Origin: Escherichia coli | GTDB taxonomy: Bacteria; Pseudomonadota; Gammaproteobacteria; Enterobacterales; Enterobacteriaceae | DNA: 64,000 bases | Strand: one strand, 5' to 3' | Assembly (NCBI RefSeq): GCF_009931435.1 | Contig: NZ_CP043414.1 | In this document: positions 31,790 to 61,428 of the stretch, piece after piece | How positions within the stretch are numbered: position 1 is the first letter of the stretch | How the letters are laid out: each line of letters begins with the position of its first letter | The notes under the pieces: model-generated | Databases searched by the model: none | Seen by the model: the letters and a program-made list of their open reading frames with translations, nothing else | What the model was told of the DNA's origin: nothing | Made by a program: the position numbers and the translations under genes

Positions 31790-31998
31790 ATAAAAAAACG
31801 CCTGCTCTTATTACGGAGCAGGCGTTAAAACAGGTCTGTATGACAACAAGTGGGTGCTTCACTCAACGTTGTGTCCATGGTGTCTGATGAGGCATAAGCG
31901 ACATCTGTCAGTGGACGATAAGCACCGTAAACGGCTCTGCGTCATTCCGGAGTTTATGAGGCACTAAGGCGAACATAAGAGATGGAATGAGCATCTAC
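31790..31998 (-). ncRNA. glmZ: GlmZ small regulatory RNA
   Basis: Minus strand reads GUAGAUGCUCAUUCCAUCUCUUAUGUUCGCCUUAGUGCC ... ending in hairpin AAGAGCAGGCGUUUUUUU, matching the remembered GlmZ sequence; located between hemY and aslA as in K-12. Confidence 0.8.
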
Positions 31999-35631: not shown

Positions 35632-35708
35632 TGGTCGGCGAGAGAGGATTCGAACCTCCGACCCACTGGTCCCAAACCAGTTGCGCTACCAAGCTGCGCT
35701 ACTCGCCG
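35632..35708 (-). tRNA. proM: tRNA-Pro (anticodon UGG)
   Basis: Reverse complement gives CGGCGAGUAGCGCAGCUUGG...GGUCGGAGGUUCGAAUCCUCUCUCGCCGACCA with cloverleaf and CCA end. Confidence 0.9.
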
Positions 35709-35750
35709 AAATACTGCTTTTTGAATTTTTAGTTCAATTCTTTAAAGTCG

Positions 35751-35837
35751 TGGTGCGAGGGGGGGGACTTGAACCCCCACGTCCGTAAGGACACTAACAC
35801 CTGAAGCTAGCGCGTCTACCAATTCCGCCACCTTCGC
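35751..35837 (-). tRNA. leuT: tRNA-Leu (anticodon CAG)
   Basis: 87-nt class II tRNA; reverse complement begins GCGAAGGUGGCGGAAUUGGUAGACGCG and ends ...CCUCGCACCA. Confidence 0.9.
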
Positions 35838-35857
35838 ATTGTCACAACTTCTAATAA

Positions 35858-35934
35858 TGGGGTGGCTAATGGGATTCGAACCCACGACAACTGGAATCAC
35901 AATCCAGGGCTCTACCAACTGAGCTATAGCCACC
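35858..35934 (-). tRNA. hisR: tRNA-His (anticodon GUG)
   Basis: Reverse complement GGUGGCUAUAGCUCAGUUGGUAGAGCCCUGGAUUGUGAUUCC...GCCACCCCA, with the extra 5' G typical of tRNA-His. Confidence 0.9.
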
Positions 35935-35991
35935 ACTACAAATCTTGTTACGCGGTATTACTACCACCGCAGCTCAAGCGCCGGGACTAAA

Positions 35992-36068
<77 letters not shown>

Positions 36069-50527: not shown

Positions 50528-50725
50528 AATGCATGCTCTCAGAGAAAATTATTAGCAGAAGTATAACCACGAAGACCTTTATTCAGAAGGGAAAGTCCGT
50601 TCCGAACCCACCAGCCCTGTGCAAAAATTAATCATTCGATATGCAAATTGCATAACACACGAGCAAAACCCAGGAATTTTCCTAACATTGCCAGTGCGGC
50701 AATAAGATTACAGATATAAAAGCAA

Positions 50726-50749
50726 AACGCCACGTAAACACGTGGCGTT
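50726..50749 (-). terminator. hairpin terminator downstream of rho
   Basis: aacgccacgt-aaac-acgtggcgtt perfect inverted repeat flanked by A/T runs on both sides, about 20 bp 3' of the rho stop. Confidence 0.5.
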
Positions 50750-50766
50750 TTTGGCATAAGACAAAT

Positions 50767-52352: not shown

Positions 52353-52682
52353 TTACGCCAGGTTAGCGTCGAGGAACTCTTTCAACTGACCTTTAGACAG
52401 TGCGCCCACTTTGGTTGCCGCCACTTCACCGTTTTTGAACAGCAGCAGAGTCGGGATACCACGGATGCCATATTTCGGCGCAGTGCCAGGGTTTTGATCG
52501 ATGTTCAGTTTTGCAACGGTCAGTTTGCCCTGATATTCGTCAGCGATTTCATCCAGAATCGGGGCGATCATTTTGCACGGACCGCACCACTCTGCCCAGA
52601 AATCAACGAGGATCGCCCCGTCCGCTTTGAGTACATCCGTGTCAAAACTGTCGTCAGTCAGGTGAATAATTTTATCGCTCAT
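52353..52682 (-). CDS. trxA: thioredoxin 1
   Basis: Start trimmed to ATG at 52682 ([39 protein letters not shown]), 109 aa with WCGPC active site. Confidence 0.97.
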
Positions 52683-52812
52683 ATATAACTCCACAGGAAT
52701 AAGCCTGGCGTGTTGGTTTCGTTGTTGGTGTAACATTAACCAACTAAAGGTTGACTTTATTTCACCGGATACGCTTTCGTAAAGCAATAGTAAGCTGATA
52801 TTCTACCACACT

Positions 52813-57983: not shown

Positions 57984-58433
57984 GTGGCGATTAATTTCAG
58001 CCCTAAGGTTGGTGAAATACTGGAATGCAACTTTGGTAACTATTCTGTTAGCCAGAATGGACAGTTCAGCACGACGTATTACGATGGCCGCATTCCACCT
58101 GAGATGATAAAAAATAGGTTGGTTGTCGTGCTCAACGGAAAAATTAATGGCAACGCATGTATCGTCATTCCATTATCAACCACTCGCGACCATGACAAGT
58201 TAAATCGTGGAATGCATGTTGAAATAGCCAGTAATGTTATCAATGACCTGCAATTCTTTGATCAGCAGATACGTTGGGCTAAAGCCGACCTGGTACAACA
58301 AGTCAGTCGAAACCGATTAAACAGAGCAAGGACTTATCGGGGGTATCTTAATCAATGTTTGCCACATGAGTTGGTTGCAGACATACAGAGGGCAGTCATC
58401 AAGTCAATCAATGCCATATCGCTCATAAATTGA
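57984..58433 (+). CDS. MazF/PemK-fold toxin-like protein (probably the K-12 yifN locus equivalent)
   Basis: GTG at 57984 with aaggag SD 10 nt upstream. Translation aligns by eye to MazF/Kid motif order: KVGEILECNF (GDLIWVDF), KNRLVVVLN (RPAVVLS), ACIVIPLSTT (MCLCVPCTT), C-terminal LPHELVADIQRAVIKSINAISLI (APEELQLIKAKINVLIG). No antitoxin-sized ORF adjacent. Confidence 0.7.
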   Translation: MAINFSPKVGEILECNFGNYSVSQNGQFSTTYYDGRIPPEMIKNRLVVVLNGKINGNACIVIPLSTTRDHDKLNRGMHVEIASNVINDLQFFDQQIRWAKADLVQQVSRNRLNRARTYRGYLNQCLPHELVADIQRAVIKSINAISLIN

Positions 58434-58561
58434 CAATAAAATCACCATCCCCGATAATGACTCTGTAGCCCATAGAGGCCCTAAGTTTTCTCCCCCTTGA
58501 GGGACCTGCGAAGCCCGGATTTTCCGGGCTTTTGCCATATATGTCCCCCCTCCCTGACTGA

Positions 58562-58867
<306 letters not shown>

Positions 58868-58871
58868 CAGC

Positions 58872-58896
58872 AAGGCCTTCTCCGGGAGAAGGCCTT
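58872..58896. terminator. bidirectional hairpin terminator between convergent ppiC and ilvC
   Basis: Perfect inverted repeat aaggccttctcc-g-ggagaaggcctt (12-bp stem) placed 4 bp after the ppiC stop and 16 bp after the ilvC stop. Confidence 0.6.
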
Positions 58897-58912
58897 GAAC
58901 TCTGAATCGCTA

Positions 58913-60388
58913 TTAACCCGCAACAGCAATGCGTTTCATATCTGTCATATAGCCGCGCAGTTTCTTACCAACCTGCTCAATTGCATGGCTGCGAATTGCT
59001 TCATTTACATCACGCAGCTGCGCGTTATCTACCGCACCTTCCGGAATAGCTTTACCTAAGTCGCCCGGTTGCAGCTCTGCCATAAACGGTTTCAGCAACG
59101 GCACACAAGCGTAAGAGAACAGGTAGTTACCGTACTCGGCGGTATCAGAGATAACCACGTTCATTTCGTACAGACGCTTACGGGCGATGGTGTTGGCAAT
59201 CAGCGGCAGTTCGTGCAGTGATTCATAGTAAGCAGACTCTTCGATGATGCCGGAATCAACCATGGTTTCGAATGCCAGCTCAACGCCTGCTTTTACCATC
59301 GCGATCATCAGTACGCCTTTATCGAAGTACTCCTGCTCGCCGATTTTGCCTTCATACTGCGGCGCGGTTTCGAACGCGGTTTTGCCGGTCTCTTCACGCC
59401 AGGTCAGCAGTTTCTTATCGTCGTTGGCCCAGTCAGCCATCATGCCGGAAGAGAATTCGCCGGAGATGATGTCATCCATATGTTTCTGGAACAGCGGTGC
59501 CATAATCTCTTTCAGCTGTTCTGACAGCGCATAAGCACGCAGTTTCGCCGGGTTAGAGAGACGGTCCATCATCAGGGTGATGCCGCCCTGCTTCAGGGCT
59601 TCGGTGATGGTTTCCCAACCGAACTGAATCAGTTTTTCTGCATATGCCGGGTCGGTGCCTTCTTCCACCAGCTTGTCGAAGCACAGCAGAGAGCCAGCCT
59701 GCAACATACCGCACAGAATGGTTTGCTCGCCCATCAGGTCAGATTTCACTTCCGCAACAAAGGACGATTCCAGCACGCCAGCACGGTGACCACCAGTTGC
59801 TGCCGCCCATGCTTTAGCGATCGCCATGCCTTCGCCTTTCGGATCGTTTTCCGGGTGAACGGCAATCAGCGTCGGTACGCCAAACCCACGTTTGTACTCT
59901 TCACGCACTTCAGTGCCAGGGCATTTCGGCGCAACCATTACTACGGTGATGTCTTTACGGATCTGCTCGCCCACTTCGACGATGTTGAAACCATGTGAGT
60001 AACCCAGCGCCGCGCCGTCTTTCATCAGTGGCTGTACGGTGCGCACCACGTCGGAGTGCTGTTTGTCTGGCGTCAGGTTAACCACCAGATCTGCCTGCGG
60101 GATCAGCTCTTCGTAAGTACCCACTTTAAAACCGTTTTCGGTCGCTTTACGCCAGGATGCGCGCTTCTCAGCGATAGCTTCTTTACGCAGGGCATAAGAG
60201 ATATCCAGACCAGAATCACGCATGTTCAGGCCCTGGTTCAGACCCTGCGCACCACAACCGACGATGACCACTTTTTTACCCTGAAGGTAGCTCGCGCCAT
60301 CGGCGAATTCGTCGCGGCCCATAAAGCGACATTTGCCCAGCTGTGCCAGCTGCTGGCGCAGGTTCAGTGTATTAAAGTAGTTAGCCAT
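58913..60388 (-). CDS. ilvC: ketol-acid reductoisomerase (NADP+)
   Basis: Start trimmed to ATG at 60388 ([23 protein letters not shown]), 491 aa; the longer ORF extends across the ilvY promoter. Confidence 0.97.
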
Positions 60389-60537: not shown

Positions 60538-61428
60538 TTGGATTTACGCGATCTGAAAACCTTCCTGCATCTGGCGGAAAGCCGCCATTTTGGCCGCAGC
60601 GCGCGGGCGATGCACGTTAGTCCATCCACGCTTTCCCGACAGATTCAGCGCCTGGAAGAAGATCTCGGTCAGCCGCTGTTTGTGCGCGATAACCGTACGG
60701 TGACGCTGACCGAAGCGGGCGAAGAACTGCGCGTTTTCGCCCAGCAAACACTGTTGCAGTATCAGCAATTGCGCCACACCATCGACCAGCAAGGACCGTC
60801 GCTCTCTGGCGAATTACATATCTTCTGCTCGGTGACCGCTGCCTACAGCCATCTGCCGCCGATTCTTGACAGATTCCGCGCGGAACACCCGTCAGTGGAG
60901 ATCAAACTCACTACCGGTGATGCGGCGGATGCGATGGAAAAAGTGGTGACAGGGGAAGCGGATCTGGCGATTGCCGGGAAGCCGGAGACGCTGCCCGGTG
61001 CGGTGGCGTTTTCGATGCTGGAGAATCTGGCAGTGGTGCTGATCGCGCCTGCCCTACCGTGCCCGGTGCGTAATCAGGTTTCGGTAGAGAAGCCGGACTG
61101 GTCTACAGTGCCGTTTATCATGGCAGATCAGGGGCCGGTGCGCCGCCGCATTGAGTTGTGGTTCCGACGCAATAAAATCAGTAACCCGATGATTTACGCC
61201 ACGGTTGGCGGGCATGAAGCGATGGTTTCGATGGTGGCGCTCGGCTGCGGCGTGGCATTGTTGCCGGAAGTGGTGCTGGAAAACAGCCCGGAACCGGTGC
61301 GTAACCGCGTGATGATTCTGGAGCGTAGCGATGAGAAAACGCCGTTTGAGCTGGGCGTTTGTGCACAAAAAAAGCGGCTGCATGAGCCGCTGATTGAGGC
61401 TTTCTGGAAGATTTTACCGAACCATTAA
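60538..61428 (+). CDS. ilvY: LysR-family activator of ilvC
   Basis: HTH region [40 protein letters not shown]. Start placed at TTG 60538 to give about 296 aa; the longest ORF's ATG at 60454 would crowd the ilvC promoter. Start is uncertain. Confidence 0.88.

Follow-up and report, generated by a model that had tools for sequence, protein, structure and literature searches.

Overlapping bidirectional terminators between convergent genes were reportedly described by Ju, Li and Liu in 2019 using SEnd-seq. In such terminators, of which ynaJ-uspE is an example, a hairpin between two convergent genes pauses RNA polymerase and leads to collisions at a fixed place (Wang et al., bioRxiv 10.1101/2022.10.23.513370). 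Inefficient termination was reported for 276 of 370 convergent operons of E. coli (Conway et al., PMC4161252). Another type of transcript end was described by Dar and Sorek in 2018 (PMC6061677), who found that Rho-terminated E. coli mRNAs end directly after stable, U-less stem-loops that stop PNPase and RNase II. Rho-loading sequence lies just downstream of these stem-loops, which may be transition states from intrinsic terminators, and a U-less stem-loop followed by C-rich sequence is the described signature of Rho-terminated, exonuclease-trimmed mRNAs in this species (PMC6061677). Among the palindromic repeats, REP elements have been reported as both terminators and stabilisers (bioRxiv 10.64898/2026.03.23.713779).

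The hairpin considered here lies between the convergent genes ppiC and ilvC in a 64,000-nt stretch of E. coli DNA (RefSeq assembly GCF_009931435.1, contig NZ_CP043414.1), the whole of which is referred to as the window. Described initially as a 'terminator', it is better read as a 3'-end-forming hairpin that is probably factor-dependent. In the window sequence the ppiC-ilvC spacer is 45 nt long (58868-58912) and is bounded exactly by two stop codons. The ppiC gene (58586-58867, + strand; ORF list and annotated E. coli record) encodes a parvulin-type peptidyl-prolyl isomerase of 93 aa and ends with TAA at 58865-58867. The ilvC gene (58913-60388, - strand; annotated E. coli record) encodes ketol-acid reductoisomerase (491 aa), with its stop read as TTA on the + strand at 58913-58915; in the ORF list its frame is extended in frame upstream to 60538 (- strand). 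The local gene order is rep (-), a yifN-like gene of the PemK/MazF family (+), ppiC (+), ilvC (-), ilvY (+) and ilvA (-). A 701-bp query around the hairpin matched strain RMDEC465 at 99.9% identity and most other E. coli at 95-99%.

Two features of the neighbouring genes were recorded. The yifN PemK/MazF-family toxin-like gene (57984-58433, + strand) is intact in the window and in the closest E. coli record, and is annotated as a pseudogene in K-12. The convergent frames of ilvY (+) and ilvA (-) overlap at their stops (61425-61428), leaving no spacer in that pair; overlapping transcription of ilvY and ilvA was published in 1989, according to a citation in PMC4161252.

The ppiC-ilvC spacer reads, in context, ...TAA cag CAAGGCCTTCTCC g GGAGAAGGCCTTG aactctgaatcgcta TTA..., and holds 12-bp arms aaggccttctcc (58872-58883) and ggagaaggcctt (58885-58896) around g58884. 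An extra pair (c58871/g58897) extends these to perfect 13-bp arms, so that the element as a whole is a 27-base palindrome with one central base (CAAGGCCTTCTCC-g-GGAGAAGGCCTTG, 58871-58897), available on both strands as a 3'-end stem-loop common to the ppiC and ilvC mRNAs. An exhaustive search found it to be the longest perfect hairpin in the window. Stems of at least 12 bp had two centres in the window, the palindrome and the rho terminator, versus none in 30 Markov-1 random sequences. For either strand RNAfold gives a stem of 12 bp closed by 3 unpaired nt (CGG on the + strand, CCG on the - strand). The 27-mer folds at -19.6 kcal/mol and a 61-nt stretch containing it at -21 to -24 kcal/mol; the folding z-scores are -3.9 (+ strand) and -3.6 (- strand). 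The folding-energy calculation proposed in the initial annotation thus gives about -20 kcal/mol on either strand with z of -3.6 to -3.9, and the 12-bp perfect stem noted there is real and slightly understated, the arms reaching 13 bp. The 1-nt loop given with it is sterically impossible and describes the symmetry of the DNA only, and the hairpin, which had been placed exactly between the two stops, is off-centre, the gap to the stop codon being 3 nt on the ppiC side and 15 nt on the ilvC side.

The rho terminator is a 12-bp perfect hairpin at 50724-50751, flanked by A4 and T4-5 and of canonical-looking intrinsic type; it sits just downstream of rho (- strand, stop 50767), before wecA. Within the 64-kb window there was no further copy of the palindrome, and Rfam 15 covariance models gave no match in 58860-58920, either at the gathering threshold or at E values up to 10. 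Gathering-level Rfam matches in the window were all on the - strand (31792-31998, 52653-52752 and 35635-36068) and comprised GlmZ sRNA, the trxA 5' UTR thermometer and four tRNA genes.

The hairpin was found as a single-copy element in 5393 of 5426 complete E. coli genomes. With a 40-nt query the median number of matches in an E. coli genome was 2, these being the two strands of a single palindromic site. A REP/BIME, a dispersed repeat and a miniature mobile element were considered as identities for the palindrome and ruled out, there being one site per genome and no REP consensus. Among the sequences examined, variation fell at the central base (g in the window, a in K-12) and in the flanks, with none in the arms. 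Two spacer alleles are common. At least 2351 genomes carry the short allele, with the 45-nt spacer of the window; among them is the type strain ATCC 11775, which matched at 100% identity a 71-nt query across the spacer (58860-58930). The long allele, with an 86-nt spacer, was present in 2944 genomes including K-12. In the long allele a U-rich tail (GAGUGUUUUC) comes after the hairpin, and then a CCCTCTCCC...GGGAGAGGGTCGGGGTGAGGG repeat that forms a second hairpin; in K-12 this 56-nt segment (2447-2502 of locus L002, - strand) stands in place of window positions 58898-58912. We take the repeat of the K-12 spacer to resemble the 'box C' repeat. PMC5100583 lists it, between ilvC and ppiC, among the 'HPGQ' elements. 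No clear similarity was found between the 15-nt and 56-nt segments, and the short allele was not recognisable as a clean deletion of the K-12 repeat. Two E. coli records differ at the site itself: in NZ_OY754443.1 (L084) an IS1 element lies inside the left arm of the palindrome, replacing the ppiC-proximal sequence, and in NZ_OW967795.1 (L085) unrelated DNA with a different hairpin directly follows ppiC.

A GC-rich, stable stem-loop, as in an intrinsic terminator, is formed on both strands, and the tails that follow it do not form a U-tract in either direction. The ppiC-side tail (AACUCUGA) has 2 U in 8 positions, and the 15-nt spacer between the hairpin and the ilvC stop (AACTCTGAATCGCTA, 58898-58912, + strand) supplies no U-tract for ppiC transcripts. 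For transcripts in the ilvC direction there is a weak U-rich tail (CUGUUAGUUACGG, 58857-58870, - strand) complementary to the ppiC stop and last codons; the tail on this side as scored (CUGUUAGU) falls short of a U-tract and passes only a lenient terminator scan, whose single hit was on the - strand. The flanks of the window allele have 4 A of 8 upstream and 2 T of 8 downstream. A d'Aubenton-Carafa-style score, which is semi-quantitative only since modern folding energies were used in the old formula, was negative at every stem boundary tried, ranging from -41 to -16 in the ppiC direction (the best value with a trimmed stem) and from -37 to -8 in the ilvC direction, with -24 for the tail CUGUUAGU. 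The lack of a long U-tract on either side was thus correctly noted at the outset, and the hairpin of the window does not resemble a classical intrinsic terminator. With 3 nt between the ppiC stop and the hairpin, a ribosome terminating at that stop would, to judge by the known size of its footprint, cover the 5' arm.

Transcript ends at this site are available for K-12, which carries the same hairpin in the long allele, and all transcript data used here thus come from an allele with the U-rich tail GAGUGUUUUC and the second hairpin. Curated Term-seq 3' ends of K-12 MG1655 were taken from Adams et al. 2021 (PMC7815308, Supplementary file 1). The M63 0.4 sheet lists 3959499(-) as 'primary, ppiC' with 23,172 reads and 3959531(+), on the ilvC strand, with 5,802 reads (PMC7815308). 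Mapped on the K-12 sequence, the two ends read ...GGCCUUG-AGU and ...GGCCUUG-CUA, each lying 3 nt past the 13-bp stem, one per strand, and they overlap by 33 nt. They adjoin the stem more closely than usual intrinsic release sites; being steady-state ends, they are compatible both with termination at the hairpin and with trimming back to it. For LB (0.4 sheet), the end curated on the ppiC strand is 3959467(-) (PMC7815308), which directly follows the second hairpin, the one formed by the repeat; the first hairpin is therefore read through in LB. By analogy with the K-12 ends, the ppiC mRNA of the window is predicted to end near 58900 (+) and the ilvC mRNA near 58868 (-). The TERMITe and SMRT-Cappable-seq supplements contained no ppiC or ilvC entry, and a literature search for 3'-end data from a short-allele strain returned none.

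A separate element was seen at the 3' end of yifN. A near-consensus sigma-70-like promoter (TTGACA-17-GATAAT, 11 of 12 matches) lies within 58430-58545 (+), followed by a 9-bp GC hairpin with a TTTTGCC tail (58511-58531). At that site, 96 nt ahead of the ppiC start, K-12 Term-seq has a strong 'orphan' end (3959909-) with 39-63k reads, an intrinsic score of 5.26 and a Rho score of 0.55; no Rfam family matched there. The element could be the yifN terminator, or a leader or short RNA of ~70 nt ahead of ppiC.

Beyond the ppiC-ilvC hairpin, the K-12 data include two bicyclomycin-responsive Rho regions (PMC7815308). The one antisense to ilvC is at 3959177(-) and has a Rho score of 3.98 (p 2.4e-12), and the one antisense to ppiC is at 3959826(+) and has a score of 2.80 (p 4e-5). 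Both lie ~300 nt beyond the hairpin, one per direction of read-through, and the hairpin-proximal ends have no Rho score of their own. The regions fit with read-through past the hairpin, with the qualification that they were called from 800-nt windows on the long allele and may reflect antisense transcripts starting inside the genes. In the window, the RNA past the hairpin in the ppiC direction has a C/G ratio of 1.6 over the first 100-200 nt, which places it at the 96th percentile among all 100-nt windows of the 64 kb; this C-rich, G-poor read-through RNA, antisense to the ilvC 3' end (58898-59100, + strand), is a candidate Rho-loading region. In the ilvC direction the ratio is 1.0 (47th percentile), and the RNA is not C-rich.

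These observations bear on the initial proposal that the hairpin terminates transcription from both directions. A shared, two-directional role in forming 3' ends is supported, because in K-12 each strand has an end 3 nt past the stem. The proposal does not hold in the sense of intrinsic termination, against which stand the negative scores, the close-lying ends, the position of the hairpin 3 nt after the ppiC stop and the Rho regions downstream. In the published K-12 Term-seq data, which serve for the 3'-end mapping that had been suggested, both M63 ends are hairpin-proximal and the LB end of the ppiC strand is at the second hairpin. The caveat on missing U-tracts and possible factor dependence also holds up.

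The explanation that we prefer, and to which we assign slightly better than even probability, is that of a shared pause and exonuclease-barrier hairpin, with release of the polymerase relying on other factors. One stable stem-loop would form at the 3' end of both convergent mRNAs, where it would pause RNA polymerase and block 3'-to-5' exonucleases, and in the short allele it would not be a self-sufficient intrinsic terminator. The mature ppiC and ilvC 3' ends would be fixed by the stem-loop a few nt past the stem on both strands, and the transcripts would as a consequence overlap by ~33 nt. Release would be mainly the work of Rho, acting on the antisense, untranslated RNA made once the polymerase has passed the hairpin; the case is clearest for ppiC transcripts, whose downstream RNA is C-rich. 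In the ilvC direction, some termination may occur by the hairpin and the weak U-tract, in addition to Rho or collisions, and head-on collisions of converging polymerases may contribute. We infer that the short allele behaves like the K-12 allele, and likewise what shares of release fall to the Rho, weak intrinsic and collision routes.

The same slot was compared across Enterobacterales. Convergent ppiC and ilvC were found in at least 30 of 53 loci (by a pattern for the ilvC C-terminus, the remaining loci possibly including misses of the pattern). The same hairpin occurs in Enterobacter asburiae, in Enterobacteriaceae isolate RIT691 and in Siccibacter colletis. Double-sided compensatory changes in these genera (G-C to A-U and C-G to A-U) involve Watson-Crick pairs only, as expected if both strands must fold. 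A covariation test on 5 distinct homologous hairpins with 2 double-sided changes was underpowered, 63 of 500 shuffles doing as well, and we count it as weak support. In 13 of 28 convergent genomes the hairpin beside the ppiC stop is A/T-flanked and of the textbook two-way intrinsic type (11 counted directly, plus L012 and L029, in which the tracts are absorbed into the stem), and A/T-flanked hairpins in this slot in other genera reach +25 to +39 on the same semi-quantitative score. The Siccibacter hairpin, with A5 and T5 flanks, scores as a canonical two-way terminator, and E. albertii has a different hairpin together with REP elements. On this evidence it is a terminator slot with rapid turnover, and its E. 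coli version has lost the A and T tracts. REP-like elements and/or a different A/T-flanked hairpin were seen in the spacers of E. albertii and several Citrobacter, Enterobacter and Pluralibacter (L004, L005, L006, L010, L015, L019, L021 and L022), and paired HPGQ/box C-like repeats in those of Pseudocitrobacter (L007 and L008). The spacer is thus a hotspot of palindromic-element turnover.

The comparison bears directly on a first alternative, in which the hairpin is a true hairpin-driven, intrinsic-type bidirectional terminator whose 12-bp stem, perhaps with NusA or NusG, releases the polymerase a few nt past the stem in both directions despite poor U-tracts, Rho dealing with a minor leak only. 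In its favour, the A/T flanks in 13 of 28 related genomes make intrinsic termination the ancestral role of the slot, and the very hairpin of E. coli scores as canonical in Siccibacter with its A5/T5 flanks. The K-12 ends are also tight against the stem on both strands, and the lenient scan flags the - strand as terminator-like. For the window allele itself, however, scores are negative in both directions at every stem boundary and the ppiC-side tail has 2 U in 8, and a terminating ribosome would lie over the 5' arm of a hairpin that starts 3 nt after the ppiC stop. K-12 in addition has Rho-sensitive regions downstream on both strands, and its dominant LB ppiC-strand end, 3959467, is at the second hairpin, the first having been read through. 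We consider this alternative unlikely.

A second alternative is an 'overlapping bidirectional terminator', in which the hairpin only pauses the polymerases, and head-on and trailing collisions release them at a fixed place independently of Rho. Expression of ilvC is expected to be induced in minimal medium, and both hairpin-proximal K-12 ends were called in minimal medium. The layout agrees as well, the genes being convergent, the hairpin unlike a strong intrinsic terminator, and the K-12 ends flanking it with a 33-nt overlap. Rho independence is, however, part of the definition of the class, and K-12 has Rho regions past the hairpin in both directions; expression of ppiC and ilvC may also be too unequal for frequent collisions. 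A low probability is accordingly given to collisions as the means of release, and the pause-and-barrier hairpin with Rho as the main release factor remains our preferred account.

A further proposal concerns the two E. coli alleles, which might constitute a natural switch in termination mechanism. In the short allele, without the U-rich tail and second hairpin, formation of the ppiC 3' end would be wholly dependent on Rho or on collisions, and induction of ilvC would tune ppiC. If this were true, limitation for branched-chain amino acids would induce ilvC and, in short-allele strains, ppiC would be tuned by convergent transcription across the 33-nt shared hairpin. We regard such a switch as improbable.

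That the palindrome is instead a DNA-level site (for a dimeric protein, a cruciform or recombination) with an incidental RNA hairpin is very improbable, for although its 13+13 perfect symmetry around a single central base would also fit a dimer operator, it sits between two stops, where there is no promoter that it could regulate, occurs once in the genome, shows compensatory changes that keep pairing and not sequence, has RNA 3' ends mapping to it, and is replaced in related genomes by unrelated hairpins that keep only the stem-loop-plus-A/T-tract logic.

The ppiC/ilvC hairpin is an ordinary element, and the 3' ends beside it have already been mapped in K-12 by published Term-seq. It marks the boundary between two E. 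coli genes that have been studied in depth, and the value of the present description lies mainly in its correct annotation. It does provide a clean case of one symmetric, U-less hairpin common to two convergent genes, a class whose mechanism is debated (Rho and trimming versus polymerase collision). The existence of two common natural alleles, with and without a U-rich tail and second hairpin, offers a ready comparison for that debate and is the only mildly interesting angle.

Set beside the known systems, the locus shares features with several. Like REP/BIME and HPGQ (presumably box C-like) repeats, the palindrome is an element of a 3' untranslated spacer; unlike them, it is single-copy and has no REP consensus. 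An HPGQ repeat adjoins the hairpin in K-12 (PMC5100583), and the window allele is without one. With the canonical A-tract/GC hairpin/T-tract terminators of Citrobacter, Siccibacter, E. albertii, Mixta and others, it shares the ppiC-ilvC slot and the role of gene-pair boundary, and the hairpin sequence itself is shared with Siccibacter, Enterobacter asburiae and RIT691, whereas in the window allele A-tract and T-tract are both gone and the score is negative in either direction. The overlapping bidirectional terminators resemble it in the convergent pair, in a hairpin that fills a short 3'-end overlap and in weak intrinsic character; that class is Rho-independent and collision-driven, and the likeness of ppiC/ilvC to it rests on layout and on the K-12 3' ends. 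With the stem-loops of Dar and Sorek it has in common a stable stem-loop immediately 5' of the steady-state end, with no U-rich tail and no upstream A-tract, sequence richer in C than in G past the ppiC side, and bicyclomycin-sensitive regions downstream in K-12. It differs from them in that one palindrome serves two convergent genes and in that the RNA in the ilvC direction is not C-rich.
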